From a virus (Duplodnaviria; Heunggongvirae; Uroviricota; Caudoviricetes): a DNA stretch of 35,146 bases. The position numbers were made by a program, and so were the translations under genes. Below, in pieces: positions 1,252 through 29,216 of the stretch. The stretch lies in IMG/VR virus record IMGVR_UViG_2909309443_000004; one strand, written 5' to 3'. Below the pieces are notes generated by a model. That model saw only the letters and a program-made list of their open reading frames with translations, was not told the origin of the DNA and made no database searches. Every line of letters begins with the position of its first letter. The stretch's first letter is position 1.

Positions 1252-1254
1252 CGT

Positions 1255-5025: not shown

Positions 5026-5102
5026 TTACCGTTGAGGTAATAATTATGCTTATTTGGTTTGGTGTCAATAGATATGAGTTAAAAAAATTACCCGTAAGGT
5101 AA
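5026..5102. promoter_or_regulatory. OL-like operator pair: TTACCGTTGAGGTAA (5026-5040) and TTACCCGTAAGGTAA (5088-5102)
   Basis: Two perfect 5-bp inverted half-sites separated by 5 bp, located between repressor gene terminator and start of leftward early operon. Confidence 0.55.
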
Positions 5103-5111
5103 TCTATCTGG

Positions 5112-5137
5112 CAATAAAAAAGCCGCCATGAGGCGGC
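5112..5137 (-). terminator. Rho-independent terminator downstream of repressor gene
   Basis: Minus-strand hairpin GCCGCC-tcat-GGCGGC followed by TTTTTTATT, 20-45 nt after repressor stop codon. Confidence 0.55.
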
Positions 5138-5159
5138 TTACTTGCTGAAAACTATAGTT

Positions 5160-5744
5160 TTATTGTTTGCTTTTTTCGTTCTGGTTGATGACAAATTCAA
5201 TGTAACTTTCGATCTTTGCCTTCTCTGTTTCAGGTAACAATGCGTAGCGCGAGCGGTCATAGTTGATAGTCGCGGGGTCGTGCGGGTGAATCAGTAATTC
5301 ATATCCGTGACGCCCAAATGCGGATGCAACATTCTCCAGGGTGGAAATGGAAACGCTGACCTCATTGTTTAACAGGCGGCTGATTGTTACCTGGGCGACG
5401 CCGGATGCGCGGTGAAGTTTTCCCTGCGTTGAAAGGTCGCGGCTTTCGCTCATCCAGCGTTCCAGGTTGTGAGCCGCCAGTTGACCAATGTCGCTTGGTC
5501 CGACAGGCTGAAAACCTTCCTGAGAAAGCGAGCGATCGATATCAAGCCAGTTACGGGGTTTATTGGCGGCAGCTTCAATTTTTCGCGCAACCTGGTCGCC
5601 GATAACCTTCTTGCCAAGAGCCCAGCGGTTTACCAGATTTGCCTGAGTTCCAAGTTTTTCAGCCATCCGCGTCTGAACACCATTGAATTCACGGTCGATC
5701 AAGTCGTTGAGATTTTGCCTGCGGACGTCCTGGATACTTTTCAT
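5160..5744 (-). CDS. Prophage repressor (CI-like), HTH protein without recognisable S24 peptidase domain
   Basis: 194-aa ORF divergent from Cro-like gene; two HTH-like segments (GVQTRMAEKLGTQANLVNRWALGKK and LHRASGVAQVTISRLLNNEVSVSISTLENVASAF); no Ala-Gly/Ser-Lys LexA-like cleavage module evident. Confidence 0.7.
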   Translation of the reverse strand: MKSIQDVRRQNLNDLIDREFNGVQTRMAEKLGTQANLVNRWALGKKVIGDQVARKIEAAANKPRNWLDIDRSLSQEGFQPVGPSDIGQLAAHNLERWMSESRDLSTQGKLHRASGVAQVTISRLLNNEVSVSISTLENVASAFGRHGYELLIHPHDPATINYDRSRYALLPETEKAKIESYIEFVINQNEKSKQ

Positions 5745-5799
5745 TTTCTGGAAAATCGCCTCATATCTGAATCAGAAGATGATTCAATTTAAAGCAATA

Positions 5800-5862
5800 T
5801 TACCCAACAGGTAAATGCACCTCATGGGTAACTATCCTTGATTTTTGTTACCTTATAGGTGA
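5800..5862. promoter_or_regulatory. OR-like operator region: TTACCCAACAGGTAA (5800-5814) and TTACCTTATAGGTGA (5848-5862) between divergent repressor and cro-like genes
   Basis: Same palindrome family as OL; intergenic 154-bp region with AT-rich promoter-like hexamers (TTGATT ... TGAATAT). Confidence 0.55.
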
Positions 5863-5898
5863 ATATTTATTATCTGAAATAAATATCAGGCAATAGCT

Positions 5899-6129
5899 AT
5901 GAGCGATAACGGACATTTCGATTTCAAAAAGCACTGGCTTGCACTTACTCCGGATGAGCGTGAAGCCTTCGCACAGGAAGCCGGAACGACGAGTCACTAT
6001 ATCCAGACTCACTTAACAGGTAAGCGCAAAATGCCAGGTAAGGTATTGATGGATGGGCTTTTTAAAGCCTGTAAATCAAGACAATGGCTGCGCTCAAAAG
6101 CAGAACTGGCATACTTCTTCTACTCATGA
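5899..6129 (+). CDS. Cro-like small HTH regulator
   Basis: 76-aa ORF divergent from repressor; HTH-like segment EREAFAQEAGTTSHYIQTHLTGKRKMP. Confidence 0.6.
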   Translation: MSDNGHFDFKKHWLALTPDEREAFAQEAGTTSHYIQTHLTGKRKMPGKVLMDGLFKACKSRQWLRSKAELAYFFYS

Positions 6130-6184
6130 TATCCAGCCACAACCCTCTGTAGACCGCCATCCGGCGGTCTTTTCATATCTATTC

Positions 6185-6199
6185 GTACCTCAAGGGTAA
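6185..6199. promoter_or_regulatory. Operator-like palindrome GTACCTCAAGGGTAA
   Basis: One-mismatch member of TTACC-N5-GGTAA family, 80 bp upstream of the 6280 ATG. Confidence 0.4.
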
Positions 6200-6279
6200 T
6201 AAAAAACCAAATATGGTTGATCTTTTTTTTGTGTCAGCACAAAATAACCGTAATCCCAATACTAATAACAGGGCTTACC

Positions 6280-6480
6280 ATGGAAATCATTACACGTATT
6301 GATGCCGCAAAGCGCGGACTTAAACGCTACTACACCGGAAAAACATGTAAGCACGGACATGACAGTGAACGCTGGGTTTACAACGGACACTGTGTTGAGT
6401 GCACCATGGAATCAAACCGTCGTATCAGGGCAGAGATTAAGCAGATCATGATTAATTCCTCCCCACAACATTCAAGCTGA
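6280..6480 (+). CDS. Small Cys/His-rich protein (possible zinc-binding regulator), cII position
   Basis: Track ORF 6217..6480 (TTG); likely ATG at 6280 (MEIITRIDAAKRGLKRYYTGKTCKHGHDSERWVYNGHCVECT...); C-x-H-x-H ... C-x2-C arrangement. Confidence 0.45.
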   Translation: MEIITRIDAAKRGLKRYYTGKTCKHGHDSERWVYNGHCVECTMESNRRIRAEIKQIMINSSPQHSS

Positions 6481-6495
6481 TAGCGGAGATTAATC

Positions 6496-8093: not shown

Positions 8094-8130
8094 TACCAGC
8101 GCGATAGCGCATTTTTTTACGTCTATATGA

Positions 8131-8207
8131 TTACCTGGAAGGTAATAAAATGTTCTAATCTCTATTGATTTCATGTCTTATGTGGTTTTTAATTACCTAA
8201 GGGGTAA
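8131..8207. promoter_or_regulatory. Operator pair TTACCTGGAAGGTAA (8131-8145) and TTACCTAAGGGGTAA (8193-8207) upstream of 8211 ORF
   Basis: Two perfect TTACC-N5-GGTAA palindromes in 117-bp intergenic region after P-like gene. Confidence 0.5.
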
Positions 8208-8210
8208 ATC

Positions 8211-8523
8211 ATGAGAAAACAGATACAGGCTCTTGGTCGACTCAAAACAGGCCAGATGAACAAAACAGAATCTGCGTATTGCCAGCACCTTGAGCTGCGT
8301 AAACGTGCAGGGGAAATCGCCTGGTATCGATTCACCATCAGTGCCTGCAACACCAGAAGTTCAGGCAGCACCACAGGAGCAGGATGCCGCCGTTGTTGAT
8401 GCCCGCGACGAAGAAACTCGTCGCCGTCGCGCTGCTGCTGGTCGTAGTTCTACGCTGCTTACCGGTTCTCAGGGCGACACATCAACCGCTAATACCAGCG
8501 GTAAAACGCTGCTTGGTCAGTAA
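8211..8523 (+). pseudogene. Probable gene remnant / deletion scar: DUF1064-like N-terminal fragment (8211-~8330) joined out of frame to a Gly/Ser/Arg-rich C-terminal ORF (8290-8523)
   Basis: 8211 ORF begins MRKQIQALGRLKTGQMNKTESAYCQHLELRKRAGEIAWYRF (resembles N-terminus of phage DUF1064 proteins) then loses protein-like sequence; second frame ends ...RRRRAAAGRSSTLLTGSQGDTSTANTSGKTLLGQ; no intact product. Confidence 0.3.
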
Positions 8524-8537
8524 CCGGAGTCATTGAA

Positions 8538-10217
8538 ATGGCGGAAACAACTAAAGAGCGATTGAACAAACAGTTCGCACAACTTGAAAGCGAGCGTCAG
8601 TCGTTCGAGCCGCACTGGCGCGAGTTGAGTGATTACATCAACCCGCGTGGTTCCCGCTTTCTGACTTCTGAGGTCAACCGTAACGATCGACGCAATACAC
8701 GCATTATTGATTCGACCGGGACTATGGCGGCGCGCACTCTCGCCAGCGGCATGATGTCAGGCATCACAAGCCCCGCGCGTCCGTGGTTTCGCCTGGCTAC
8801 GCCAGATCCTGAAATGATGGATTATGGCCCTGTTAAGTTGTGGCTTGAGGCGGTGCAGAACCGCATGAACGATATGTTCAATAAGTCGAATCTCTATCAG
8901 TCGCTGCCGCAGTTATACGGAAGCCTCGGCACATACAGCACTGGCGCAATGGCGGTGCTGGAGGATGACGAGGACATCATTCGTACAATGCCATTCCCGA
9001 TAGGAAGTTACTACCTGGCTAACTCACCTCGTGGCAGTGTGGACACCTGTTTTCGCAAGTTCTCTATGACTGTTCGTCAGCTTGTTCAGGAGTTCGGGCT
9101 AAATAACGTCAGCGAATCCGTAAAAAGCATGTGGGAAAGCGGCACCTACGAGAAGTGGATTGACGTGATGCATTCGGTTTACCCGAACATTGACCGCGAT
9201 ACATCGAAGCTGGATAGCAAGAACAAGCCATTCAAATCGGTTTATTACGAGGTTGGTGGCGATAACGACAAGTTGTTGCGTGAGTCCGGATTTGATGAGT
9301 TTCCAATTATGGCTCCGCGCTGGGAAGTTAACGGCGAAGATGTTTATGGATCATCATGCCCGGGTATGCTGGCGCTTGGAGCTGTTAAGGCATTGCAGCT
9401 TCTCCAGAAGCGCAAGTCGCAGTTGATTGATAAAGCCACCAATCCGCCGATGGTTGCTCCGACTTCCCTCAAGAATCAGCGTGCCTCCCTTCTTCCTGGC
9501 GACATCACGTATATCGATCAGATTACTGGTCAGGATGGTTTCAGGCCTGCTTATCTGGTTAACCCCAGTACAGCAGATTTGGTGGCAGACATTCAGGACA
9601 CTCGTCAAATCATTAACAGCGCCTACTTTGTCGATCTGTTCATGATGTTGCAGAACATCAATACCCGCTCGATGCCTGTTGAAGCGGTGATCGAAATGAA
9701 AGAAGAAAAACTTCTGATGTTGGGGCCGGTTCTGGAGCGTCTGAACGACGAATGTCTTAACCCTCTCATTGACCGCGCTTTCTCGATGATGGTGCGTAAA
9801 AACATGCTGCCGCCACCGCCTGACGCGATGGAAGGTATGCCCCTGAAGGTCGAATACATTTCCGTCATGGCTCAGGCGCAGAAGTCTATCGGCCTGTCCA
9901 GTCTGGCGTCCACGGTTAACTTCATTGGTCAACTTGCGCAAGCGAAACCAGAAGCTCTCGACAAACTCAACGTTGATCAGGCGATCGATGCATTCGCTGA
10001 TATGTCCGGAGTGTCTCCAACCGTCATTGTTCCGCAGGAACAGGTTGAGCAGGCTCGCCAGCAACGGGCACAGCAACAACAGCAGCAACAAATGATGGCG
10101 ATGGGGATGGCGGCGGCACAGGGTGCCAAGACGCTAAGCGAAGCTAAAACTTCGGATCCGAGTGTTTTGTCAGCTATGGCGAATGCAGTTAGTGGTCAGG
10201 GTGGGCAATCACAATGA
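8538..10217 (+). CDS. Portal (head-to-tail connector) protein, T7 gp8-like
   Basis: 559-aa ORF at head of structural module; Gln-rich/Met-Ala-rich C-terminus (QQRAQQQQQQQMMAMGMAAAQGA...) as in T7 gp8; followed by scaffold and capsid genes. Confidence 0.8.
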   Translation: MAETTKERLNKQFAQLESERQSFEPHWRELSDYINPRGSRFLTSEVNRNDRRNTRIIDSTGTMAARTLASGMMSGITSPARPWFRLATPDPEMMDYGPVKLWLEAVQNRMNDMFNKSNLYQSLPQLYGSLGTYSTGAMAVLEDDEDIIRTMPFPIGSYYLANSPRGSVDTCFRKFSMTVRQLVQEFGLNNVSESVKSMWESGTYEKWIDVMHSVYPNIDRDTSKLDSKNKPFKSVYYEVGGDNDKLLRESGFDEFPIMAPRWEVNGEDVYGSSCPGMLALGAVKALQLLQKRKSQLIDKATNPPMVAPTSLKNQRASLLPGDITYIDQITGQDGFRPAYLVNPSTADLVADIQDTRQIINSAYFVDLFMMLQNINTRSMPVEAVIEMKEEKLLMLGPVLERLNDECLNPLIDRAFSMMVRKNMLPPPPDAMEGMPLKVEYISVMAQAQKSIGLSSLASTVNFIGQLAQAKPEALDKLNVDQAIDAFADMSGVSPTVIVPQEQVEQARQQRAQQQQQQQMMAMGMAAAQGAKTLSEAKTSDPSVLSAMANAVSGQGGQSQ

Positions 10218-10510
10218 CAGATTACGAAGATGATCAACTGAAAGAAGAAAACGCCCGTAAGCAACGTGACATGGCACAGCGTGAAATTGATGACATTCGC
10301 TTTGTCATGAGCAGTGAACAGGGGCGTCGCGTTGTCTGGTCGGTGCTGGAGAAAGGCCGTGTGTTTTCCGCTATCTCACCGATGGACGCTATGGCAATGG
10401 CATTTAATGAGGGGCAACGCAATCTGGCGCTGGAACTGTTTCAGCGCGTTATGGCGCATTGCCCTGAACAGTATTTGAAGATGGCCAAAGAGGCCAGTGA
10501 ACAGGAGTGA
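10214..10510 (+). CDS. Hypothetical head-assembly protein
   Basis: 98-aa ORF, ATG overlaps portal stop (ATGA); between portal and scaffold. Confidence 0.5.
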   Translation: MTDYEDDQLKEENARKQRDMAQREIDDIRFVMSSEQGRRVVWSVLEKGRVFSAISPMDAMAMAFNEGQRNLALELFQRVMAHCPEQYLKMAKEASEQE

Positions 10511-10512
10511 TC

Positions 10513-11208
10513 ATGAATTTATTTGAGCGTTTGCTGTATCGCCGTCTTTGCAATGAGCAACCAGTCGATGGTGGAGCAGCTCCGGCTGCGTCAGAACCGT
10601 CAGCGCCTGCAGGTGATAACCCTGCTCCAGTTGGTGATCCATCACAATCGGAAGGTGATAAGCCACAACCTGTTGCTGATGGCGATAAACCTGCTGATGA
10701 CAAAAAGCCTGAAAGCGATAAGCAGGGTGAAAAAAAGGACGGCGATAAACCGGATGGTGCGCCGGAGAAGTACGAGTTTCAGGCTGCCGAAGGCGTAGAG
10801 CTGGATACAGAAGCGTTAAAGGAATTCGAGCCGGTGGCGCGAGAACTAAACCTGACCAACGAGCAAGCGCAAAAGCTGGTTGATGCTTATCCGAAGATTC
10901 TGGCAGGTGTTCAGCAGCGCCAGGCAGAAGCCTGGCAGAAAACAACCGAGCAGTGGGCTGCGGATGTAAAAGCTGACAAAGAAATCGGTGGCGACAAGTT
11001 GATTTCTAACCTTAGCTCCGCACAGCGTGCGCTTGACCAGTTCGGGACACCTGAACTCAAAGAATATCTGAACACCACCGGGCTGGGTAATCACCCTGAT
11101 CTGGTCAAAACGTTCGTGAAAATCGGAAAGGCGATGTCTGAAGATGGCATGGTCACCGGTGGTAATGAAGGCCAGCGTAGTGCGGCCGAAGTGCTCTATG
11201 GCAAATAA
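10513..11208 (+). CDS. Scaffolding protein (acidic, low-complexity N-terminus)
   Basis: Track ORF 10507..11208; ATG 10513 follows AGGAG; Asp/Lys/Pro-rich repeats (GDKPQPVADGDKPADDKKPESDKQGEKKDGDKPDG) then helical C-terminus; position between portal and capsid. Confidence 0.65.
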   Translation: MNLFERLLYRRLCNEQPVDGGAAPAASEPSAPAGDNPAPVGDPSQSEGDKPQPVADGDKPADDKKPESDKQGEKKDGDKPDGAPEKYEFQAAEGVELDTEALKEFEPVARELNLTNEQAQKLVDAYPKILAGVQQRQAEAWQKTTEQWAADVKADKEIGGDKLISNLSSAQRALDQFGTPELKEYLNTTGLGNHPDLVKTFVKIGKAMSEDGMVTGGNEGQRSAAEVLYGK

Positions 11209-12085
11209 GAGAGGAGATAACAATGGCTGTTAAAGGCTTAACTGCGCTAACGCTGGCTGACTGGGGTAAGCGCGTCGATCCAAATGGGAAAGTCGATAAG
11301 ATTATCGAGCTTCTCAATCAAACTAACCCAATTCTTCAGGATATGCCTTTTGTTGAAGGAAACCTTCCTACCGGACACCGAACCACCATTCGTTCTGGTT
11401 TACCTTCTGCTACCTGGCGTTTGCTGAACTATGGCGTACAGCCAAGCAAATCAACCACAGTGCAGGTCACCGATTCCATTGGCATGCTGGAAACCTATGC
11501 TGAAGTCGATAAGTCTCTGGCTGATCTGAACGGTAATACTGCCGAATTCCGTCTGTCTGAAGACCGAGCATTTATTGAAGCGATGAATCAGGCGATGGCG
11601 CAGACACTGTTTTACGGTGATTCCAGCGTTAACCCTCAGCAGTTTATGGGACTGTCCTCCCGCTATTCCAGCCTGTCTGCGGGTAATGCTCAGAACATCA
11701 TTGATGCTGGTGGCACGGGTACAGATAACACTTCAATCTGGTTAGTGGTGTGGGGCGAAAACACCGTGCATGGCATCTTCCCGAAAGGACAGAAGGCTGG
11801 CATTCAGATGGAAGATAAAGGCCAGGTGACACTGGAAGATGCTAATGGCGGCAAGTACGAAGGTTATCGTACCCATTATAAGTGGGACAACGGGCTGACA
11901 TTACGTGACTGGCGCTATGTAGTTCGTATCGCAAACATCGATGTCAGCAATCTTTCAGAACCTTCCTCTGCCGCAAATATTGCGAAGTTGATGGTTAAAG
12001 GTAAGCGTAAACTGACCGCCGTATGTAGCCATCAGACGAGAATTGGTAACTTAGACGCCCATCTGATATAGACGGACATCTAAGT

Positions 12086-12511
12086 ATGGAATTACAGGAC
12101 TGGCGAAAAGAACCTCGTAAAAACTATTCGAATGAATTCAAACTTCGTATGGTGGAACTGGCATCACAACCTGGAGCTTGTGTTGCACAGATTGCACGTG
12201 AAAATGGCGTCAATGATAATGTTATTTTCAAATGGCTCAGGCTCTGGCAGAACGAAGGGCGTGTTTCGCGGCGTCTTCCGGTAACGACCTCTTCTGACAC
12301 TGGCGTTGAATTATTACCTGTAGAAATAACGCCGGATGAGCAGAAAGAACCTGTGGCGGCCATTGCGCCGTCTTTATCCACTTCCACTCAGACCAGAGTC
12401 AGTGCCAGTTCCTGCAAGGTGGAATTCCGTCACGGTAACATGACGCTGGAAAATCCATCGCCAGAGCTGCTCACAGTGTTGATCCGTGAACTGACCGGGA
12501 GGGGAAGATGA
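12086..12511 (+). CDS. IS66-family accessory protein TnpA (orfA)
   Basis: 141-aa ORF, HTH-like N-terminus (SNEFKLRMVELASQPGACVAQIARENGVNDNVIFKWLRLW); first ORF of IS66-type element. Confidence 0.8.
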   Translation: MELQDWRKEPRKNYSNEFKLRMVELASQPGACVAQIARENGVNDNVIFKWLRLWQNEGRVSRRLPVTTSSDTGVELLPVEITPDEQKEPVAAIAPSLSTSTQTRVSASSCKVEFRHGNMTLENPSPELLTVLIRELTGRGR

Positions 12512-12858
12512 TCTCACTCCCATCAGGTACCCGTATCTGGCTCGTTGCCGGCGTTACCGATATGCGTAAATCCTTCAACGGACTGGGAGAACAGGTACAA
12601 CATGTGCTGAATGATAATCCCTTCTCCGGTCACCTGTTTATCTTCCGTGGCCGACGGGGTGACACCGTCAAAATTCTTTGGGCTGATGCTGATGGTCTGT
12701 GCCTGTTCACCAAACGCCTGGAGGAAGGCCAGTTTATCTGGCCTGCGGTACGTGACGGCAAGGTATCCATTACCCGCTCGCAACTGGCAATGCTCCTCGA
12801 TAAGCTGGACTGGCGTCAGCCAAAAACATCCAGCCGTAACTCACTGACAATGTTGTAA
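12508..12858 (+). CDS. IS66-family accessory protein TnpB (orfB)
   Basis: 116-aa ORF MISLPSGTRIWLVAGVTDMRKSFNGL..., overlapping orfA stop (ATGA), typical IS66 Orf2. Confidence 0.8.
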   Translation: MISLPSGTRIWLVAGVTDMRKSFNGLGEQVQHVLNDNPFSGHLFIFRGRRGDTVKILWADADGLCLFTKRLEEGQFIWPAVRDGKVSITRSQLAMLLDKLDWRQPKTSSRNSLTML

Positions 12859-12888
12859 AAAACTCCTGACCGCATTATAAAAACGGTC

Positions 12889-14502: not shown

Positions 14503-14799
14503 GCGTCAATACGGTGCTCCGTTGACGCTTACGTTAAAGCACTGCATCGCATTCCAAACCGTGGCATGGGTCGCCCGGTGTTCTACATGAACCGCACTGT
14601 AGGCCAGGCTCTTGATCTGCAATCTCTGGAGAAAACATCTCTGGCTATCAGCGTAAAAGAGACTGAAGGCGAGTGGTGGACTTCATTCCGTGGTGTACCA
14701 ATCCGTGAAACTGATGCGCTTCTGGAAACAGAAGCCCGCGTGGTGTAACGCCTGTTATTAACCTGTGGGTCGTAACAGACCCACTAATGGAGAAAGAAG

Positions 14800-15237: not shown

Positions 15238-15238
15238 G

Positions 15239-15583: not shown

Positions 15584-15600
15584 GCCTCGCGAATCAGACA

Positions 15601-15622
15601 AGGGGCTTCGGCCCCTTTATTG
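15601..15622 (+). terminator. Rho-independent terminator (UUCG tetraloop hairpin)
   Basis: AGGGGC-ttcg-GCCCCT followed by TTTATT. Confidence 0.55.
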
Positions 15623-15633
15623 CAGGAGTGTAT

Positions 15634-21246: not shown

Positions 21247-23045
21247 GTTACTTTGGCCTTAATCCAGTAAACCAGAATCAGCAGCTTGACGAAGCAGCAT
21301 CAAATCCAGCTGGCTTTAACAGCAATGTTGGTTTTTTCGACAATGCTGTAGGAGCGGCATTGTCTGGTTTGTACTCCGGGCTGGTGGCAAAGCCAGATCA
21401 GTTGCTATGGGCAGGGATGGATAAAATCGTATCCCCGATTGCTCAGTTTGTTAACGAAAACACCTCGCTCAATGACACTTCAGTTTCATACATTGCTGAG
21501 CAGAGAAAACTAGCAGAGCAGCAGGTTAAGCGGCTGACGCCTGATGCGGCGACAACCGGAACCGCCGGGCAGGTCCTTTATGGGTTGTTCGATATGGGCG
21601 GGCAGGCTGTTGTCGGTACAACGCTCGGTGGTCCGGTCGGAGGTGCTGCGGCGGTAACTTCGCTACAGGGTTTTTCTGAGTTTGAACGGCTGACAGCACA
21701 GGGTGTTGATTTCAGGACGGCGCAGGAAGCGGGATTAGTGCAGGGTATTACTGCTGGTGCCGGAACACTGATCCCTATGAGCCTCGGGTTACGTGCTGGT
21801 GGTGCGCTGGCGGAAGGTGTGGCGGCTCAGCTTGCGCGGACTGGTGAAAGTTCAGTGCGACGCGCCGCAGCAACAGCAGTACGTGCAACGCCAGATATTG
21901 CCTATGCCGCAGGTACAAATATTGCGTTCGGTATGGCACAGCGTGGGCTTACTGCAAAAACGCTTCGTGATGGTGGCTATAGCGAAATGGCTAACCAGTA
22001 TGATGTGTTGGATCGACAGGCAATTGCTATTGATGCTGTTCTTGGGGTGGCGTTTGGTGGTGTCGGCAGATTTATTAACTCTCGCGGCGAGTCTACAAGC
22101 GCACCAAATTTTTCACCAGTTGATGTTGATGCTGCACTGGCGGCGAATGCCGCTCATCATGCTGAAATTGATATTGCGCCCGGCGTGCCGATCAACGTGC
22201 TTTCGCGCAATTCTCACATTCAGGCTCTGCGAAAAGCTATGTCTGATGTTAGCCAGGGGAGACCTGTAGACGTTGCCAGCATTGTTGAGTCTGCATCTTT
22301 CAGTGAAATTCCTGGGCGCAAGAGTCTGCTGTCTCAGGCAGTTAATGAGGCTCTGTCATCTGTAGATGATGGAGTAACGGCGCGCGCTATAGAAAATCGG
22401 TTGCTTGAAGAACAGGCCGCGCAGCTTTTGCCGCGTGGCGATAGACAGGTTTACCAGTCTGAAATCGCTAATAGCCAACGAATTATTGAAAATCTCACTG
22501 AACAGCGCGCACAAATTCTTGCAGAAGAGCCAACCGGTAGCGGTAAATCTTTGTCTCGTGCTCGATCAGATAAACAGGTCAGACTTCGCGATATTGACCA
22601 ACGAATCCGGCAGGCACAAGAACGCCTGGAATTTTCCCGTAACGCGTTGGCGCCGCACGAGCCTGGAGGTCAGTTTTTTGAAGCTCGAGCAGAACTGGCA
22701 CGGCGACAGCAGGCAGAAAGTGAACTTAATGCTCAGGCTGTTTCATTCTATAAAACAGCAGAGGTCAGGACGCCAGACGAAGTAGCTCCTTTTGAGCCCG
22801 GTAAGATATTGCAACAGACAGAACAAAAAATGATGGCAGATCCGGCAGGAGATATTGATCTGCGTATAGCTGAAGACTCGCTGCTTGAATCTCCGGACAT
22901 GATAATCACCGTGCTGGATGATGATGGTAATCCACAATCGCGCAGTGCGCGTGAAGTACTGGATGAAGCGAACAGGGAAAGTGAGCAGGCAATACAGGAT
23001 TCCAGCCTGTTTGATGTTGCTGTGGCGTGTTTCTTGAGAGGTTAA
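21243..23045 (+). CDS. Internal virion (ejection) protein
   Basis: 600-aa ORF, Gly/Ala-rich N-terminal half, coiled-coil C-terminal half; ATGA overlap with upstream gene. Confidence 0.55.
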   Translation: MSYFGLNPVNQNQQLDEAASNPAGFNSNVGFFDNAVGAALSGLYSGLVAKPDQLLWAGMDKIVSPIAQFVNENTSLNDTSVSYIAEQRKLAEQQVKRLTPDAATTGTAGQVLYGLFDMGGQAVVGTTLGGPVGGAAAVTSLQGFSEFERLTAQGVDFRTAQEAGLVQGITAGAGTLIPMSLGLRAGGALAEGVAAQLARTGESSVRRAAATAVRATPDIAYAAGTNIAFGMAQRGLTAKTLRDGGYSEMANQYDVLDRQAIAIDAVLGVAFGGVGRFINSRGESTSAPNFSPVDVDAALAANAAHHAEIDIAPGVPINVLSRNSHIQALRKAMSDVSQGRPVDVASIVESASFSEIPGRKSLLSQAVNEALSSVDDGVTARAIENRLLEEQAAQLLPRGDRQVYQSEIANSQRIIENLTEQRAQILAEEPTGSGKSLSRARSDKQVRLRDIDQRIRQAQERLEFSRNALAPHEPGGQFFEARAELARRQQAESELNAQAVSFYKTAEVRTPDEVAPFEPGKILQQTEQKMMADPAGDIDLRIAEDSLLESPDMIITVLDDDGNPQSRSAREVLDEANRESEQAIQDSSLFDVAVACFLRG

Positions 23046-23050
23046 ATTAA

Positions 23051-25525
23051 ATGAGACAGGAATGTATACAAGCGGTCCAGCAGGCGGCGCAGCGCACGTT
23101 AACGGCGCGAGAAATACAGAACATTGAAGACCGCATTTATCGAAATATGCGCTCCATTGCTCGTGATGACCCGATGTCGTGGCGACAACTTTCCGAATCA
23201 GAACGGTTGTATCGTGCAGCACAATTGGCATCTGAAGAATTACAGCGAGAAGCGGCATTAAAGAAACGTCGTGTGGCCCTCACTATAGCCGCACGTCAGA
23301 GATTGGATAAATTTATCAATAACTATCAAGGGGCTGATGGGAAACTTGGCGCTCTTAACCGTACTATTGCTTTTAATGCAGACGGTAAATCGAATTTCCT
23401 CTCTGTTGAATCCAGAACAAAAGCCACTCGTGATTATGCATTGAGTCAATTGCAGGAGGCATTTGAAGCAGTTGATCCTCGCTTTTTTGGCCTGTTTGAA
23501 GATGAAGCGGGCGTGCGTGACCTGGTATATGAAATGCGAGGGCAAAATACTGGCAATGCTAAAGCAAGAAAAGGTGCTAAGGCGTGGAGAGAAGTGACAG
23601 ATCTACTTCGCCGCCGGTTTAATGATGCTGGTGGGGACATTGGCTATCTCGAAAACTGGGGGATCCCTCAACATCATTCTATGGAAAAGGTTGGGGCGGT
23701 ATCAAAAGATAAATGGGTTAGCGATGTTATAGGTAAGCTGGATCGCAAATATTATACCCGAGCCGATGGACAACTGATGAACGATGCCGAGTTGTCTGCA
23801 TTTCTTGGAGAGGCTTATAACACGATCGCTACTGGTGGGCTGAATAAGCTTACTGACACCGGAATGCGAATTTCCGGAGCACGTGCTAACCGTGGTAATG
23901 CATCACGACAGATACATTTCAAAGATGCAGATTCCTATCTGCAATATCAGCAACTTTATGGCGATCGCTCTCTATGGGAAATCATGGTCGGTCACCTGGA
24001 AGGTATCAGTAAAGATATTGCACTGGTGGAAACATATGGCCCAAACCCCGATCATGTTTTCCGCTCTCTTCTTGATCAGGTGAAGGCAGAAACGGCAACA
24101 GCTAACCCGAGTAAAACCGGTAGCGTCGAGCGTCTGGCGAACAAAACAGAGAACTTGTACAACTTTATTTCCGGAAAAACACAGCCTGTAGCGAATCCCC
24201 ACATCGCGCGATGGTCTGACAATATCCGCAACTGGCTGGTTGCCAGCAGACTCGGATCCGCGTTGCTGTCATCGTTCTCTGATCTTGGAACCATGTATCT
24301 GTCTGCGAAGGTTACCAACCTTCCAATGAACCAGTTATTTCGCAACCAGCTTGAAGCTATTGACCCAACGAACCGTACTGAGCTTGCGCGGGCGCGCCGC
24401 GCTGGCCTGGCGATGGAATCTCTACTTGGCAGCGTTAACCGCTGGGCGATGGATAATATGGGGCCGTCTGTGTCTCGTTGGGCGGCAACGGCGGTAATGC
24501 GTGCCAGTGGGCTTACAGCATGGTCAGATGCGCACAAGCGCGCCTATGGCGTAACCATGATGGGAAGCCTGGGAGAAGTAGTGTCACGGACACCAGACCT
24601 TCGTAGCCTCGATGACTCTGATTTTCGTATCCTGAAAAGTAAAGGGATTACTGACACAGACTGGAGCGTATGGAAGCTGGCGCAACAGGAGGACTGGGGG
24701 AACGGTAATAATACGATGCTGACACCGGAAAGCATTATGCGTATCCCTGATTCAGCAGTTAAACATCTTGGTGAGCCTGAACGCGTGAAATTTGAGGCAA
24801 TGCGTAAACTGCTCGGTGCCGTAACTGAAGAAGTTGATATGGCTGTTATTACACCGGGCGCACGTGAGCAGATGTTCGTAGGGTCTGGTCTTCAGCGTGG
24901 AACATGGAAAGGTGAATTAACGAGAAGTGTTTTCCTGTTTAAATCGTTCCCTATCTCGGTTGTTATGCGTCACTGGTCACGCGCTATGGGTATGCCGTCT
25001 GCTGGTGGGCGTGCAGCATATATAGCAACGTTTTTAGCAAGCACAACCATGCTTGGTGCTCTTTCCATGCAGATTACTGATCTTATTAATGGGAGAAATC
25101 CAAAGGAAATGACCGGTGACCACATGGTTAAATTCTGGATAAATGCATTTTTAAAAGGTGGCGGGGCTGGGTTGTACGGTGATTTTCTTTTCTCTGACCA
25201 CACTAGGTACGGGAGCGGCGCGCTGGCGTCGATGCTTGGCCCGGTAGCTGGTCTGGTTGATGATGTAGTGAAGATTGCTCAGGGCATACCGTTAAATGCT
25301 GTGGAAGGGAAGAGTGAGCAGACTGGTGGTGATCTGGTGAAGCTGGGGAAAGGTTTGATGCCTGGTGCGAATCTCTGGTACTTGAAGGCGGCTCTCGATC
25401 ACATGATCTTTAACCAGATGCAGGAGTATTTTTCACCAGGTTATTTGCGTAAAATGGAGCAACGTTCGAAGAAAGAGTTTAACCAGACATACTGGTGGCG
25501 ACCACAGGATGTCACTCCGCAATAA
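23051..25525 (+). CDS. Internal virion (ejection) protein, T7 gp16-like C-terminal region
   Basis: 824-aa ORF; C-terminus (..GPVAGLVDDVVKIAQGIPLNAVEGKSEQTGGDLVKLGKGLMPGANLWYLKAALDHMIFNQ..) has the character of gp16-family tails. Confidence 0.55.
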   Translation: MRQECIQAVQQAAQRTLTAREIQNIEDRIYRNMRSIARDDPMSWRQLSESERLYRAAQLASEELQREAALKKRRVALTIAARQRLDKFINNYQGADGKLGALNRTIAFNADGKSNFLSVESRTKATRDYALSQLQEAFEAVDPRFFGLFEDEAGVRDLVYEMRGQNTGNAKARKGAKAWREVTDLLRRRFNDAGGDIGYLENWGIPQHHSMEKVGAVSKDKWVSDVIGKLDRKYYTRADGQLMNDAELSAFLGEAYNTIATGGLNKLTDTGMRISGARANRGNASRQIHFKDADSYLQYQQLYGDRSLWEIMVGHLEGISKDIALVETYGPNPDHVFRSLLDQVKAETATANPSKTGSVERLANKTENLYNFISGKTQPVANPHIARWSDNIRNWLVASRLGSALLSSFSDLGTMYLSAKVTNLPMNQLFRNQLEAIDPTNRTELARARRAGLAMESLLGSVNRWAMDNMGPSVSRWAATAVMRASGLTAWSDAHKRAYGVTMMGSLGEVVSRTPDLRSLDDSDFRILKSKGITDTDWSVWKLAQQEDWGNGNNTMLTPESIMRIPDSAVKHLGEPERVKFEAMRKLLGAVTEEVDMAVITPGAREQMFVGSGLQRGTWKGELTRSVFLFKSFPISVVMRHWSRAMGMPSAGGRAAYIATFLASTTMLGALSMQITDLINGRNPKEMTGDHMVKFWINAFLKGGGAGLYGDFLFSDHTRYGSGALASMLGPVAGLVDDVVKIAQGIPLNAVEGKSEQTGGDLVKLGKGLMPGANLWYLKAALDHMIFNQMQEYFSPGYLRKMEQRSKKEFNQTYWWRPQDVTPQ

Positions 25526-25721
25526 GGAAGTGTTGTGTTTTTAATTATTTTGAGTGTGATAATTTCTGGTGGATTGTTATTTATTGACCGCTACAAATAT
25601 TTTCTTAACCCTCAGACTCAAGCTATTTGCTGGTTCATCTTTGTTGTGCAGGGAGTAGTTCTTGTTGCAAGCCTTATTGAGGGGAGGCCTCTTATTTTTA
25701 CTGGGTAAATTAGGTGACTAC

Positions 25722-26018
25722 ATGCAAGCTATAGGATTCATTGTTTATATCGTCGTTGGTCTTTTTCAGTTGGCAGCAATTATGGCTGGGCTTGAATCAT
25801 GGTGGGGATTGCACTGGATAATTGCAGCCCCCATTGCTTTCATCGTGAGCTATATTCCATTTGTTGGAGCGATTGTTGGTATGGTTGGCGCTGTGGATGT
25901 ATGGCGGTGGGAGTGGTGGCAGGCTGGCCTTCTCTTCTTTGGTGGGATCATCTTTGCTATTGTCTGCGGTGGAATGTCATCATTTTTCGAATGGCTAGCA
26001 TTCAGAAAAGGAACGTGA
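25722..26018 (+). CDS. Small polytopic inner-membrane protein (3 predicted TM helices), function unknown
   Basis: Track ORF 25662..26018 (TTG); ATG 25722 follows AGGTGA; hydrophobic segments IGFIVYIVVGLFQLAAIMAGL / IIAAPIAFIVSYIPFVGAIVGMVGAV / LLFFGGIIFAIVCGG. Confidence 0.5.
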   Translation: MQAIGFIVYIVVGLFQLAAIMAGLESWWGLHWIIAAPIAFIVSYIPFVGAIVGMVGAVDVWRWEWWQAGLLFFGGIIFAIVCGGMSSFFEWLAFRKGT

Positions 26019-26049
26019 CATGTCACAGGCCGCTTTCGCGGCCTTGTTT

Positions 26050-26211
26050 TTAACGAATGCCACCGCCTCCCGGGCGGGAATCCGCAGAACGCCCACCGCA
26101 GCGGGAGCCGTCAGCGGCAGTATCGCTGTCGTGCTGACAACGACCGGCAAAGGCCTGAGTTGAAGCTACCAGAGACAACAAAACGAACAGTGCAGCAAAT
26201 GCTTTTTTCAT
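26050..26211 (-). CDS. Small secreted Cys-containing peptide (53 aa precursor)
   Basis: Internal Met of track ORF 26050..26283 gives MKKAFAALFVLLSLVASTQAFA signal peptide followed by 31-aa Gly/Arg/Asp-rich peptide with 2 Cys; weak RBS. Confidence 0.35.
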   Translation of the reverse strand: MKKAFAALFVLLSLVASTQAFAGRCQHDSDTAADGSRCGGRSADSRPGGGGIR

Positions 26212-26282
26212 TGTGAAATTTCCATCTATAAGCCACCTCAATGTGGCGTCAATGAGTGTAGCACTGACTTTTGTTTCGTCCA

Positions 26283-26304
26283 CAAAAAATCCCGCAGCGC
26301 GGGC
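26283..26304 (-). terminator. Rho-independent terminator after 147-aa gene
   Basis: Minus-strand hairpin CCCGC-gct-GCGGG followed by TTTTTTG, 2 nt after stop of 26305..26748 ORF. Confidence 0.5.
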
Positions 26305-26748
26305 TTATTCTTCTTCTTCATCATTAAAAAGCGGATTGTTGTTTCCATCTGATGAAAGGAAAGGTATGTGTTCTCTTGAAAATCCAACAATGACAATTTC
26401 ATTATCATTTTTTGCATAATGAATGCATTCATTAGAATGCATTCCGCCAGGGTTGAAATTTAAGTTAATGGTATAATTCTTAAATGTGTTTGGATACCAT
26501 GTTGGCCCACAATGATAATGCCAATAATTCTCTTGCTCATAATTGTCTGAGCCTGGAATTTTATCATGGTTATCATCAACCCACGAGGGCTTGTTTTTTC
26601 CAACAAGCGCCCTTCCATTGGCAACATCCTCTAAAAACCTTTGTATGATTTTTATTTCATCATCAGTAAGGAAAGGTCCGTCTACAGCGAAAGGGGTGTT
26701 GCTTTCCCCATGTAGAAAACTATTAGATATTCTAATGTTAAACTTCAA
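26305..26748 (-). CDS. Unknown AT-rich moron protein with acidic C-terminal tail (147 aa)
   Basis: TTG start 7 nt after AGGAG; markedly lower GC than surroundings; His/Cys cluster (YWHYHCGP...HSNECIHY) and terminal FNDEEEE; no recognised family. Confidence 0.55.
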   Translation of the reverse strand: MKFNIRISNSFLHGESNTPFAVDGPFLTDDEIKIIQRFLEDVANGRALVGKNKPSWVDDNHDKIPGSDNYEQENYWHYHCGPTWYPNTFKNYTINLNFNPGGMHSNECIHYAKNDNEIVIVGFSREHIPFLSSDGNNNPLFNDEEEE

Positions 26749-26768
26749 GGAAAACTCCTGATGTGCTT

Positions 26769-26936
26769 CTATTTGGAGCGAAATGCCGCCTTGAAGTCGC
26801 TAAAAGATGTTCCTGTCTGGTAAACCATATCCTTGTCGCGCTCTTTGCTTGCGCGACCAAGCATAACTTTTCCAATGACATCCCAGCATTGCTTGGCTTG
26901 TTCATTGTGCTGAGTACGATTTTTCAACGCTGTCAT
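26769..26936 (-). CDS. Small basic protein (55 aa), first gene of two-gene operon with 26305..26748
   Basis: Manually translated MTALKNRTQHNEQAKQCWDVIGKVMLGRASKERDKDMVYQTGTSFSDFKAAFRSK; GGAGG 6 nt upstream of ATG; operator palindrome 12 bp upstream. Confidence 0.4.
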   Translation of the reverse strand: MTALKNRTQHNEQAKQCWDVIGKVMLGRASKERDKDMVYQTGTSFSDFKAAFRSK

Positions 26937-26948
26937 ATCGCGCCTCCT

Positions 26949-26963
26949 TTACCTTTAAGGTAA
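26949..26963. promoter_or_regulatory. Operator palindrome TTACCTTTAAGGTAA overlapping promoter of 26936<-operon
   Basis: Perfect TTACC-N5-GGTAA; upstream (minus-strand sense) TTGGCG ... TAATAT hexamers at -35/-10-like spacing. Confidence 0.5.
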
Positions 26964-27029: not shown

Positions 27030-27749
27030 TCAGAAGAACCCTGCCTTGTCGTTGATGTACTCCGCGTGGGTCTGGATATCACGCAGGCATTTGCTCACAC
27101 CGACGATGTAGCAGAACATGGTGGTCAGTTCCGCCGCCGCGCCCGATACGTCATGCCCGTCTTCCTGTAACTGGTTCAGCAAATTCATCAGCAGTGAGTT
27201 CTCCGTCAGGCCGAGAACACCAGACGGTGAATGAATCAGGCTACGGTAGCCGGGCTTCAGTGGGGCGCTGTAGGTTTTGTTCTCTATCTTCATTGCCTGC
27301 ATCACTGCTGATGCTGTGGCGTTGGCTACCTGGTCGGCAACCATCTTTATGCGTTCTTCTTGCGGGAGCGAGTTTTTAATGTAACTTCCGGTGCGGCGGA
27401 TCTGAGGAAGAACCTCACCTGTAACCCATTTACGAAAGCGGTATGGGATAGTGCCTGGTGTCACCGCATCGCGGCAGCGGAGGATCAGTGTGTAGAGGCC
27501 TGACTCGTTGATAATATTGGTTTCGCCTTGACGGCCTAAGTTAAATTTAGCCCTTTCATCATCATCAAGAGATTTTATTGACATAGTGGGGTTTGTCAGT
27601 TGAAGAGCTTTAATAACGTCTTTGGCAACAAACCAAGGATTAATCGCAAATCCAACTCTCCTCAGAGTTATAACGCTCAAACGCTTTACACATACTTTGT
27701 GTTGGTGCTGGAGGGCGTTCAAGGGCAGCCATGACTTGCTCCCAAACAT
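27030..27749 (-). CDS. Bro-N-like antirepressor-type protein with C-terminal domain paralogous to 28868..29125 product
   Basis: Track ORF 27030..27758; Bro-N-like segment GFAINPWFVAKDVIKAL...SGLYTLILRCRDAVTPGTIPYRFRKWVTGEVLPQIRRTG; C-terminal ~90 aa share clear similarity with ORF 28868..29143. Confidence 0.6.
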   Translation of the reverse strand: MFGSKSWLPLNALQHQHKVCVKRLSVITLRRVGFAINPWFVAKDVIKALQLTNPTMSIKSLDDDERAKFNLGRQGETNIINESGLYTLILRCRDAVTPGTIPYRFRKWVTGEVLPQIRRTGSYIKNSLPQEERIKMVADQVANATASAVMQAMKIENKTYSAPLKPGYRSLIHSPSGVLGLTENSLLMNLLNQLQEDGHDVSGAAAELTTMFCYIVGVSKCLRDIQTHAEYINDKAGFF

Positions 27750-27924
27750 CCTCTTCAACGATCAAGCGGCGATGTTCATTAATAACTGTTTCAGCTCTAA
27801 AAGTCGTAGACTCCATTACAAATTGAGATACGGACACTTTAGAAATAACAGCAGCTTCTTCGATACGGCGCTTCGCAGCTTCGGGCAGACGAAACTCGAA
27901 CCGCTCCTTTCTTACTGCGTTCAT
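27640..27924 (-). CDS. DUF1778-like ribbon-helix-helix protein (TacA-antitoxin-like / Arc-like regulator)
   Basis: Track ORF 27640..27948 (GTG); ATG 27924 lies 5 nt after AGGAG; sequence MNAVRKERFEFRLPEAAKRRIEEAAVISKVSVSQFVMESTTFRAETVINEHRRLIVEEDVWEQVMAALERPPAP fits DUF1778 RHH pattern; no GNAT toxin partner present. Confidence 0.6.
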   Translation of the reverse strand: MNAVRKERFEFRLPEAAKRRIEEAAVISKVSVSQFVMESTTFRAETVINEHRRLIVEEDVWEQVMAALERPPAPTQSMCKAFERYNSEESWICD

Positions 27925-27988
27925 AACAACTCCTGAGCTAATGCTCACAGTGGTTTATACCACATAACGATATGCACGGTACGGGAAT

Positions 27989-28096
27989 TTACCGTACAGG
28001 TAATGATAAGCGCGAAGAAATATTAAAATCAACCTTATTTGGTTGATTGCGTTTAACGCTTGATCACCTGAAAGCAAGATATTACCTTTAAGGTAA
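27989..28096. promoter_or_regulatory. Operator pair TTACCGTACAGGTAA (27989-28003) and TTACCTTTAAGGTAA (28082-28096) in divergent promoter region
   Basis: Two perfect palindromes between divergent RHH/Bro-N operon and membrane zinc-ribbon gene. Confidence 0.5.
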
Positions 28097-28116
28097 TGTT
28101 ATTGTGAGGAAAAGCA

Positions 28117-28845
28117 ATGGAAGTTTTCTGGATAGTTGTTGGTGTGGTTGCGGTGATTATTTACGTTATCAACCAGAACAAGACTAAGATCTCTGATCGT
28201 ACGGTCGTTAATCATAACAAAACGATAAAGACCGAAGATGGGGAGATAACGATTAATCGTACACAGGTGATAGAACACACCTCTACTCAGTTTCAAAAAA
28301 CTGGAGGTAATGCGCCTAATATTTCCGCACCTCCTGCTTATGATAGTGCGGTAATCCAGACATATTATAAACAGCAGGAGTTAGCAAAAGAGAGGCAACT
28401 GATTCAGCCAAAGCCGTTTACAACTGAGATTCCACCTGGAGTGTCAACGCGTCCGGCATATCATGGAAGATTCCCTGGTGATGACATATCGTCTCAGTCA
28501 TCTAAAAAAGCACCTCAGGCAATATCAGAGCCAGCAAGAATACCTTCTGTATCGCCGCAAAAAGAAGAATCAGCTAACAGAGTTTCAAGTGGTAGCAAGC
28601 AGTGCTTGCGATGCAGAATAAACCTTCCATATGAAAAATTCAGGAAATCGTCAAAAAATCCAGATGGATTGACTAAATGGTGTGCAAGGTGTCTCGATGG
28701 CCCAAAGAATACACGCCATATGAAGTGGTGCCCAATTTGTAATGTCCGCAGAAAACGAACCAGCTTTTACCCTAATAATCAAAATGCGGACGGCTTAATG
28801 GCATGGTGCAAAACGTGCTGGGATGAGCACAAAGCGAAACGATAG
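28117..28845 (+). CDS. Membrane-anchored protein with duplicated C-terminal zinc-ribbon motifs, function unknown
   Basis: 242-aa ORF; N-terminal TM helix (FWIVVGVVAVIIYVI), long low-complexity linker, then two repeats CLRCRINLPYEKFRKSSKNPDGLTKWCARC and CPICNVRRKRTSFYPNNQNADGLMAWCKTC. Confidence 0.6.
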   Translation: MEVFWIVVGVVAVIIYVINQNKTKISDRTVVNHNKTIKTEDGEITINRTQVIEHTSTQFQKTGGNAPNISAPPAYDSAVIQTYYKQQELAKERQLIQPKPFTTEIPPGVSTRPAYHGRFPGDDISSQSSKKAPQAISEPARIPSVSPQKEESANRVSSGSKQCLRCRINLPYEKFRKSSKNPDGLTKWCARCLDGPKNTRHMKWCPICNVRRKRTSFYPNNQNADGLMAWCKTCWDEHKAKR

Positions 28846-28867
28846 GCCGCTCTTGCGGCCTTTAAAT

Positions 28868-29125
28868 TTACCGGGTTTGTTTTCGTAATTGTTCGGCACA
28901 ATAGTCGAGATGTGTTTGCAGATCCCGCATAGACATCTGTGAGCTGGTGACGTAGTTAATCAGTGCAGTCAGTTCGGCAAGTGGGCCATCGACATTAAAT
29001 CCATCCTTATCGAGATCCCGGAGTAATTTCATCAAGTGCGATCCCTCCACCAGTGACCTGACGCCTCCCGGCGTGTGAATCCTTTCGGTAAATCCGTCTT
29101 CCAGTGGATAGTGATACCGCTGCAT
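28868..29125 (-). CDS. Small protein paralogous to C-terminal domain of Bro-N-like protein
   Basis: Track ORF 28868..29143 (TTG); ATG at 29125 with GGAG RBS; ..LMKLLRDLDKDGFNVDGPLAELTALINYVTSSQMSMRDLQTHLDY.. aligns with ..LMNLLNQLQEDGHDVSGAAAELTTMFCYIVGVSKCLRDIQTHAEY.. of 27030 gene. Confidence 0.55.
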   Translation of the reverse strand: MQRYHYPLEDGFTERIHTPGGVRSLVEGSHLMKLLRDLDKDGFNVDGPLAELTALINYVTSSQMSMRDLQTHLDYCAEQLRKQTR

Positions 29126-29201
29126 CTTATCTTCTCCATGCAATAACTGTATATTTATACAGTATCAAATAATTTGTTTGCTATCCAGCACGTTTTGCAA
29201 A

Positions 29202-29216
29202 TTACCCGAAAGGTAA
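29202..29216. promoter_or_regulatory. Operator palindrome TTACCCGAAAGGTAA between 29125<- gene and tailspike
   Basis: Perfect TTACC-N5-GGTAA in 195-bp divergent intergenic region. Confidence 0.45.

Follow-up and report, generated by a model that had tools for sequence, protein, structure and literature searches.

TTACC-N5-GGTAA palindromes as probable operators of the master repressor Rep in a defective Uetakevirus prophage of Escherichia coli

Introduction

The DNA studied here, referred to as the window, is the 35,146-nucleotide IMG/VR record IMGVR_UViG_2909309443_000004, which its sequence identifies as a defective phiV10/epsilon15-type (Uetakevirus) prophage. It carries 11 copies of a 15-bp palindrome, TTACC-N5-GGTAA, all of them intergenic, which are very probably the operators of the master repressor Rep (5160-5744), the orthologue of SPC32H Rep. 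The window shares 98% identity with Escherichia phages phiv142-3 and phiV10 (Uetakevirus, epsilon15-like podoviruses) and spans int (1-1251) to the lysis genes; in sequenced hosts, the prophage is integrated beside guaA. The Rep-Ant-LexA switch between lysis and lysogeny has been characterized in SPC32H/SPN1S (PDB 5D50, 5D4Z). The operator set itself is already known, its sites being annotated as repressor-binding in epsilon15; the window contributes a further genus member in which they had not been annotated. New, to a modest degree, are operator pairs that enclose promoters at a spacing of 62 bp, a fixed register between the -10 element and the operator, a second antirepressor candidate that Rep would control, and an apparently uniform operator specificity of the genus.

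Results

Count and placement of the palindrome

An exact search of the window for TTACCNNNNNGGTAA found nine matches, at 5026, 5088, 5800, 8131, 8193, 26949, 27989, 28082, and 29202, against none in 100 dinucleotide-preserving shuffles. When one mismatch was allowed, the sites at 5848 (GGTGA) and 6185 (GTACC) were added, and the resulting 11 sites compared with an average of 0.62 per shuffle (at most 4). The sites at 26949 and 28082 share one sequence, TTACCTTTAAGGTAA. In a blind count of inverted repeats with gaps of 0-11, TTACC-N5 was the commonest 5-mer dyad in the window (nine copies); the runner-up, ATTAC-N7 (four copies), consisted of TTACC-N5 sites shifted one base outward. The motif is a perfect inverted repeat and hence symmetric, not an asymmetric operator.

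All 11 sites are intergenic. The intergenic share of the window is 6.2%, according to a gene list built from open reading frames (ORFs), the Prokaryotic Genome Annotation Pipeline (PGAP), and the phiV10 annotation, and the placement would have p ~5e-14 at random. The structural block (8208-26948) holds no site with up to one mismatch, partly because of a deletion described below. Seven of the 11 sites (6185, 8131, 8193, 26949, 27989, 28082, and 29202) lie away from the clusters that flank rep. The cluster between rep and the cro-like gene is tripartite only when a site with two mismatches at 5817 is counted. A twelfth site, TTACCTTAAAGGTAT, is found outside the window, 43-57 bp upstream of window position 1 and of int.

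At the same threshold of one mismatch, 50 kb of an E. coli O6:H16 chromosome with this prophage contained no site, and neither did the host flank adjoining the prophage (11.7 kb; approximately 62 kb of host DNA in all). The initial annotation, which was made from the sequence of the window alone, had listed 11 intergenic sites, two of them identical, and none in the long structural stretch; every coordinate, the intergenic placement, and the identical pair were reproduced. The comparisons that it proposed, with shuffled sequence, with host DNA, and with related prophages, all agreed with its reading of the motif. Its statement that the palindrome marks every early and accessory promoter was too broad: no site was found upstream of the lysis cassette (31921-32060), and the control element of ant, the SOS antirepressor gene, is a LexA box. 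The region 31921-32060 retains a remnant of the left half-site only, TCACCAACTAAGGGG; phiV10 (24692) and epsilon15 (24704) have an operator there, and the O-antigen-modification gene of these relatives is absent from this region of the window.

Conservation of the sites in related phages

The GenBank record of epsilon15 (AY150271.2) contains seven features labeled "protein_bind, repressor, lysogeny" with the sequence (A)TTACC-N5-GGTAAT. They are placed upstream of terS and gp3, in the gap between ant (gp19) and the tailspike gene, at three positions left of rep, and once after the replication gene. In the window, the sites to the left of rep, behind the replication genes, and between ant and the tailspike gene correspond to these annotated positions; the last of them, at 29202, is syntenic with the annotated repressor-binding site at epsilon15 19895-19911. 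No features are given in the epsilon15 record for the three sites between rep and gp39 or for the partner at 35969. The sites are not mentioned in the phiV10 record or in the paper on phage ZX5 (PMC9782041), and a full-text literature search for the half-site sequences together with phage repressor gave no relevant match.

With up to one mismatch, the numbers of sites were 14 (phiV10), 15 (epsilon15), 18 (SPC32H), 15 (Enterobacter phage Tyrion), and 13 (Klebsiella phage BUCT711); shuffles, run for phiV10, Tyrion, and BUCT711, gave means of 0.4-0.6. TTACC-N5-GGTAA was the top dyad wherever dyads were counted in these relatives, and the positions are syntenic. Sites at the same relative positions were also present in 80 IMG/VR relatives, which the Rep scan had returned at 99-100% identity only and which are thus informative on the conservation of position, not on diversity. 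When 84 sites were pooled, the ten half-site positions proved to be 92-100% conserved. The five spacer positions vary freely with a bias to A/T, and A and T are also favored in the flanks; the consensus is aTTACCwwwwwGGTAAt. Half-sites that stay fixed while spacer and flanks drift point to selection on protein contacts rather than to recent duplication.

The intact relatives have further sites before terS (in tandem, 18 bp apart), before the gp3/portal operon, in the divergent region between the lysis and O-antigen-modification genes, and before int. Judging from these positions, the regulon in intact relatives covers essentially the whole genome, beyond the early and accessory genes; the terS and gp3 sites are missing from the window because of the deletion. 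The int-proximal site in the relatives always has the same GGTAT mismatch, and the lysis/O-antigen-modification site has a conserved single mismatch in four of five relatives, the copy at epsilon15 24704 being exact. These conserved mismatches perhaps serve partial repression of genes that the lysogen needs. The phiV10 operators at 87-101 and 105-119 fall inside the annotated coding sequence (CDS) of the small terminase (41-715); since the equivalent sites of epsilon15 and Tyrion lie upstream of the CDS, the start codon of the phiV10 terminase gene has probably been annotated too far upstream.

To compare more distant members, 86 Rep homologues were collected, 19 were aligned with the window Rep, and three divergent contexts (52-59% identity; Serratia and E. 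coli prophages) were examined. TTACC-N5-GGTAA was the top dyad in all three. In the Serratia prophage, Rep has an insertion beside the helix and the helix-turn-helix (HTH) of the Cro-like protein is changed (AGTTAKYIMAHTQ), and the motif is unchanged. The same half-sites accompany Rep homologues down to 43% identity in Escherichia, Salmonella, Enterobacter, Klebsiella, and Serratia. From these sequences, one immunity specificity seems to be common to the whole family, with no operator diversification in at least five host genera, which is mildly unusual for temperate phages and a small evolutionary curiosity.

Rep, the Cro-like protein, and two antirepressor-type proteins

Rep matches PDB 5D50 chain A over query residues 1-190 with an expect value (E) of 3.5e-42, the only structural homologue found by sequence. 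Its Pfam matches are of HTH type only, and the Pfam search found no S24 peptidase (autocleavage) domain in it. It is 99.5% identical to phiV10 p40 and to ZX5 ORF21 and 43% identical to the epsilon15 repressor. The N-terminal domain is better kept than the rest (53% versus 37-38% identity to epsilon15 and SPC32H), and NLVNRW in Rep is invariant across the six phages compared.

Two papers describe the SPC32H orthologue. It consists of an N-terminal DNA-binding domain, a middle dimerization domain, and a C-terminal domain for tetramerization and Ant binding, with two pairs of middle domains approximately 100 Å apart (PMC9986798). It is a tetramer on palindromic DNA in which each DNA-binding pair comes from subunits of different dimers, and Ant disassembles the tetramer (PMC9638917, which summarizes Kim et al. 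2016). The mode of gene repression by SPC32H Rep was called "not extensively characterized" in a structural paper of 2023 (PMC9986798). In ZX5, overexpression of the repressor abolished free phage and lowered endolysin and holin transcripts by >99.9%. The ZX5 Bro-N protein is an antirepressor whose overexpression lowered lysogeny and reduced rep transcripts by 75% (PMC9782041); the latter drop hints at positive autoregulation or at promoter interference in the rep/cro region.

The small HTH protein encoded at 5899-6129 matches phrog_35, "transcriptional repressor" (E 9e-13), and is 78-79% identical to its epsilon15 and SPC32H counterparts; its HTH, AGTTSHYIQTHLTG, is invariant in the six phages compared. 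This Cro-like protein is a possible second binder of the same operators.

Ant of the window matches PDB 5D50 chain E (E 6e-46) and is 86% identical to SPC32H Ant. CTGT-N8-ACAG has two matches in the window, the LexA box at 29147 and one inside a coding region; by its sequence and position, the former is the actual SOS input of the switch. The protein at 27030-27680 combines a Bro-N domain (E 7e-18) with a region that is 44% identical to the window Ant over 72 amino acids (E 2e-16), and it matches phrog_130, "anti-repressor Ant". It had been noted earlier as antirepressor-like with an operator in front of it, and both the operator and the Ant-like domain are there; the SOS antirepressor proper is ant (28868-29125). 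The DUF1778/TacA-like gene lies directly before the Bro-N::Ant-like gene and overlaps it within one operon, and no GNAT toxin partner for the DUF1778/TacA-like protein is present at 27030-27924.

Operator register at candidate promoters

The sites and their neighbors are listed in Table 1. At four of them, the last base of a predicted -10 element is the first base of the operator (5040, 8193, 26963, and 28003). Promoters were assigned from this recurring register with the operator and not from promoter counts.

Three stretches (5139-5026, 6151-6261, and 8100-8207) share one layout, in which a terminator is followed in turn by an operator, the -35/-10 elements, a second operator, and the start codon; the three modules can be aligned beyond the palindrome itself. 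In each of them, the two operators keep a centre-to-centre spacing of exactly 62 bp. The pairs span 5102 to 5026 (minus strand), 8131 to 8207, and 6185 to 6261, and in the last of these the downstream copy has decayed. A pair spacing of 61-63 bp was found in all compared genomes (exactly 62 in phiV10, epsilon15, SPC32H, and Tyrion, and 62-63 in BUCT711). Each early unit accordingly comes with a terminator and a promoter of its own, an arrangement that suggests the absence of an antitermination cascade. The gene at 6280-6480, earlier placed at the cII position, has no detectable relation to CII.

Several of these arrangements recur in the relatives. The rep-proximal site likewise lies 55 bp upstream of the rep start in epsilon15 and SPC32H, and at a distance of 17 bp from it an exact match is present in epsilon15, SPC32H, and BUCT711. 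The GTACC variant of 6185 is kept in phiV10 (33112) and Tyrion (35365). The junction of operator and ATG at 8193-8211 is also found in epsilon15 (operator 35969, CDS 35987), phiV10 (35132, CDS 35150), and Tyrion, where the operator at 37327 overlies an annotated ribosome-binding site (37335-37338) ahead of the CDS at 37345; the gene behind it encodes a RuvC-like nuclease in epsilon15 and Tyrion versus DUF1064 in the window. The operator at 27989 precedes the two-gene operon that encodes the DUF1778 and Bro-N::Ant-like proteins and, from its position, would control it; the operator at 26949 would likewise control the accessory genes 26936-26769 and 26748-26305.

Two further elements were seen beside the operators. 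A decamer resembling TTATKTGGTT occurs within 60 bp of six of them (5050, 6205, 8178, 27958, 28035, and 29247) and is probably a relic of the common descent of the promoter cassettes, or else an unassigned accessory site. As a window-wide motif, TTATKTGGTT was rejected, with eight matches versus 4.8 expected and eight reached in 11 of 100 shuffles (not significant). Sites for integration host factor (IHF) were predicted beside several operators by the epsilon15 annotators.

Table 1. Operators, candidate promoters, and associated genes in the window
Feature	Position	Strand	Description
Operator (exact), PL-proximal	5026..5040		First base is last base of -10; would cover ~-7 to +8
PL candidate	5068-5040	minus	TTGACA-17-AATTAT
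Operator, upstream partner at PL	5088..5102		62 bp centre-to-centre from 5026; just past rep terminator (5139-5120)
rep, master repressor	5160..5744	minus	194 aa; full-length homologue of SPC32H Rep
Operator (exact)	5800..5814		55 bp upstream of rep start codon; overlaps -35 and spacer of candidate rep promoter
Candidate rep promoter	5815-5786	minus	TTTACC-18-TAAATT
Weak middle site, rep/cro gap	5817..5831		GCACCTCATGGGTAA; 2 mismatches; 17 bp from 5800
Operator (1 mismatch)	5848..5862		Overlaps -35 and spacer of PR
PR candidate, rightward early promoter	5845-5873		TTGTTA-17-TATTAT
Cro-like small HTH protein	5899..6129	plus	First gene of rightward operon; epsilon15 gp39 homologue
Operator (1 mismatch, GTACC)	6185..6199		Right after terminator of cro-like gene (6151-6170)
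Candidate promoter for gene 6280-6480	6217-6245		TTGATC-17-CAAAAT; downstream of operator 6185
Decayed partner site	6247..6261		TAACCGTAATCCCAA; 4 mismatches; 62 bp from 6185; starts one base past candidate -10
Operator, upstream partner	8131..8145		After terminator following replication P gene; phiV10 annotates equivalent terminator
Post-replication promoter candidate	8165-8193		TTGATT-17-TTTAAT
Operator, promoter-proximal	8193..8207		First base shared with -10; holds Shine-Dalgarno AAGGGG; ends 3 nt before ATG 8211
Accessory genes behind 26949	26936-26769 and 26748-26305		phrog_8607, phrog_5954; no known function
Operator (exact)	26949..26963		First base (minus strand) is last base of -10 of TTGGCG-18-TAATAT (26992-26963)
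Bro-N protein with Ant-like C-terminal domain	27030..27680	minus	Second antirepressor candidate, putatively Rep-controlled
DUF1778/TacA-like small protein	27640..27924	minus	First gene of Bro-N::Ant operon; PF08681 E 3e-19; PGAP: DUF1778
Operator (exact)	27989..28003		First base (minus strand) is last base of -10 of TTGATT-18-TATCAT (28032-28003)
Operator (exact, same as 26949)	28082..28096		20 bp upstream of accessory gene 28117-28845; weak -10-like GATATT overlaps by two bases
Accessory gene	28117-28845		Zinc-ribbon-rich; no known function
ant, small antirepressor	28868..29125	minus	Orthologue of SPC32H Ant; beside tailspike gene
Perfect LexA box	29147..29162		CTGTATATTTATACAG; ~25 bp upstream of ant
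Operator (exact)	29202..29216		Divergent ant/tailspike gap; ambiguous promoter assignment; only weak promoter match

Lesions of the prophage

Compared with phiV10, a deletion of approximately 7.2 kb (35273-39104 plus 1-3371) has its junction near 8333. Both terminase genes and the nin-like genes are gone, as is most of the DUF1064 gene, whose remaining fragment is fused at window 8211-8523 to the gene that precedes portal. The 8333 junction was found in 16 of 5,426 complete E. coli genomes, with three O6:H16-labeled strains among the best 12 matches listed. An IS66-family element at 12001-14532, with three ORFs (HTH_Tnp_1, TnpB_IS66, and DDE_Tnp_IS66), splits the major capsid gene into 11223-12071 and 14566-14748; in the related prophage of M9682-C1, the capsid gene is intact and the tail-fibre gene contains IS100. 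A further deletion of 1.3 kb relative to phiV10 (10926-12221) lies at window 18412-18424, inside the genes for internal/ejection proteins, and on this account the prophage cannot make particles.

Discussion

If the palindromes are Rep operators, repression could be pictured as follows. In each 15-bp site, two 5-bp half-sites lie 10 bp apart, or one helical turn, and each would be contacted by the N-terminal HTH of a Rep subunit. Promoter-proximal operators (approximately -7 to +8) would block PL, the post-replication promoter, and two promoters of the accessory island; the operators at PR and at the candidate rep promoter would cover the -35 element and the spacer. Bound Rep would exclude RNA polymerase. 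The other DNA-binding pair of the tetramer could hold the partner operator 62 bp upstream, so that the promoter would be clamped cooperatively between two sites; as 62 bp is approximately six helical turns, both operators would face the same side of the DNA.

Because Rep has no autocleavage domain, DNA damage would act through LexA. Upon SOS induction, LexA would leave 29147-29162, Ant would be made and would strip Rep from all sites, and the operator-controlled units would fire together. The Bro-N::Ant gene, with a Rep operator upstream in precisely the repressing register, would then supply extra antirepressor as a feed-forward latch. These elements can tentatively be read together as a portable promoter cassette: a 62-bp operator pair clamped by one Rep tetramer in a micro-loop that encloses the promoter, a cassette that wires newly gained accessory genes, including the Bro-N::Ant latch, into immunity, and one operator specificity throughout the family. 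In its entirety, this combined account is possible, though we regard it as somewhat doubtful.

Several points weigh against assigning the sites to Rep as a simple repressor. The repressor features of epsilon15 are bioinformatic annotations. Generic sigma-70 promoter scans of the operator regions gave matches no commoner than in shuffles, and a convincing promoter in the repressing register is missing at 28082, 29202, 6185, 8131, and 5088. In the relatives, sites precede genes that are expected to be on in lysogens (phiV10 oac, 24692, and int), which excludes simple full repression there. The motif is constant across the family, so that covariation cannot assign it to Rep or to the Cro-like protein. 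The Cro-like protein is also the more conserved of the two (78% versus 43%), with an invariant HTH, and because of this co-conservation, a conserved motif is not diagnostic of Rep.

A rival view is that the dispersed sites are chiefly targets of the Cro-like protein, which would dampen expression from the early, accessory, and late units in lytic growth, and that Rep would need only the rep-adjacent sites. The invariant HTH of this best-conserved regulator of the family parallels the invariant half-sites, and its phrog_35 assignment is that of a repressor. Nevertheless, we consider the view improbable. The Serratia relative keeps the motif with a changed Cro HTH, a mild argument against an exclusive role for Cro, and the epsilon15 annotators attributed the sites to the repressor. 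The ZX5 repressor alone, when overexpressed, cut late-gene transcripts by >99.9% (PMC9782041), and the 62-bp pairs suit a tetramer with two DNA-binding pairs, as Rep is known to be (PMC9638917, PMC9986798). Use of the sites by both proteins is likely and compatible with the assignment to Rep. Operators common to Cro and CI are the rule in lambda-type switches, and by this analogy Rep and the Cro-like protein probably both bind here. The initial proposal that one protein, most likely Rep, controls the dispersed promoters is supported with caveats: homology, the epsilon15 annotation, half-site invariance, and the -10 register argue for Rep, with the Cro-like protein as a possible co-binder.

It is highly improbable that the palindrome is bound by a host factor, or by another phage regulator (for instance PerC-like or AlpA-like, in the left operon), as an activator site or promoter-recognition element. 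Such a role would fit the partners at 5088, 8131, and 6185, approximately 60 bp upstream of predicted transcription starts, a position that activators also use, and it would fit the sites before oac and int. However, the best-defined sites overlap -10/+1 or -35, which is the geometry of a repressor, and a 5+5 inverted repeat at one helical turn suits an HTH dimer like the Rep N-terminal domain. Against a host factor in particular, the host DNA scanned is free of sites and the motif travels with the phage through five genera. We know of no E. coli factor with a TTACC-N5-GGTAA consensus; the sites of GntR and UxuR differ in spacing. The threefold module, alignable beyond the palindrome, could also suggest that the repeats are remnants of a duplicated promoter cassette, and the operator-ATG junction that is common to phages with differing downstream genes (RuvC versus DUF1064) could suggest recombination joints at module boundaries, kept by descent. 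This is hardly credible as the full explanation, as conservation is confined to the ten half-site positions and N5 differs between genera at syntenic positions; a role as mosaic joints would add to the operator function, not replace it.

With the palindromes taken as Rep operators, a defective O6:H16 E. coli prophage appears to keep an intact Rep/operator/Ant/LexA circuit of the epsilon15/SPC32H type. The genes of the accessory island would then probably be silent in the lysogen and not be lysogenic-conversion genes. The 62-bp pairs, the -10/operator register, and the Bro-N::Ant fusion offer concrete DNA substrates for the "trans" binding model of the tetramer and for looping. Beyond correct annotation, the importance of these observations is small.

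Among known systems, epsilon15 is the closest match, with the same palindrome, the same dispersal (left of rep, behind the replication gene, and between ant and the tailspike gene), the same 62-bp pairs, and a matching genome architecture. The window differs from it in three extra sites in the accessory island, in the missing terS and gp3 sites, and in a repressor that is only 43% identical. The Rep-Ant-LexA switch of SPC32H/SPN1S has full-length homologues of both Rep and Ant, a repressor with no autocleavage domain, and a LexA box before ant, and SPC32H has the same palindrome as its top dyad; the window additionally encodes the Bro-N::Ant fusion behind a Rep operator.

Other resemblances are more distant. 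In phage P1, the C1 repressor acts through over a dozen operators spread along the genome, and induction and antirepression depend on a separate antirepressor system. The likeness of one immunity repressor acting on many operons through dispersed operators is functional only, because P1 uses asymmetric 17-mer operators, the sequence of C1 is unrelated, and P1 is a myovirus-type plasmid prophage. The stoperators of mycobacteriophages L5/Bxb1 (gp71-type) occur in dozens of copies in short intergenic regions and silence the whole prophage; they are asymmetric and orientation-dependent and act on elongation, whereas the sites of the window are symmetric and lie on promoter core elements.

As in lambda, where CI and Cro act at tripartite OL and OR with long-range looping, rep and the cro-like gene diverge from a gap that holds two strong sites and one weak site, a second operator cluster lies on the other side of rep, and by the same analogy Rep likely binds cooperatively through oligomerization. 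In contrast to lambda, Rep of the window has no S24 domain, the operators are not confined to OL/OR, and half-site and spacing are different; tetramerization of SPC32H Rep uses a C-terminal fold different from that of lambda CI (PMC9986798). The window also resembles P22 in that a small gene of ribbon-helix-helix type (DUF1778/TacA-like) lies directly upstream of an antirepressor gene in one operon. In P22, immI with its arc-ant operon forms a second immunity-like region far from the repressor gene. The operon of the window differs in apparently being under the operator of the main repressor and not under Mnt.

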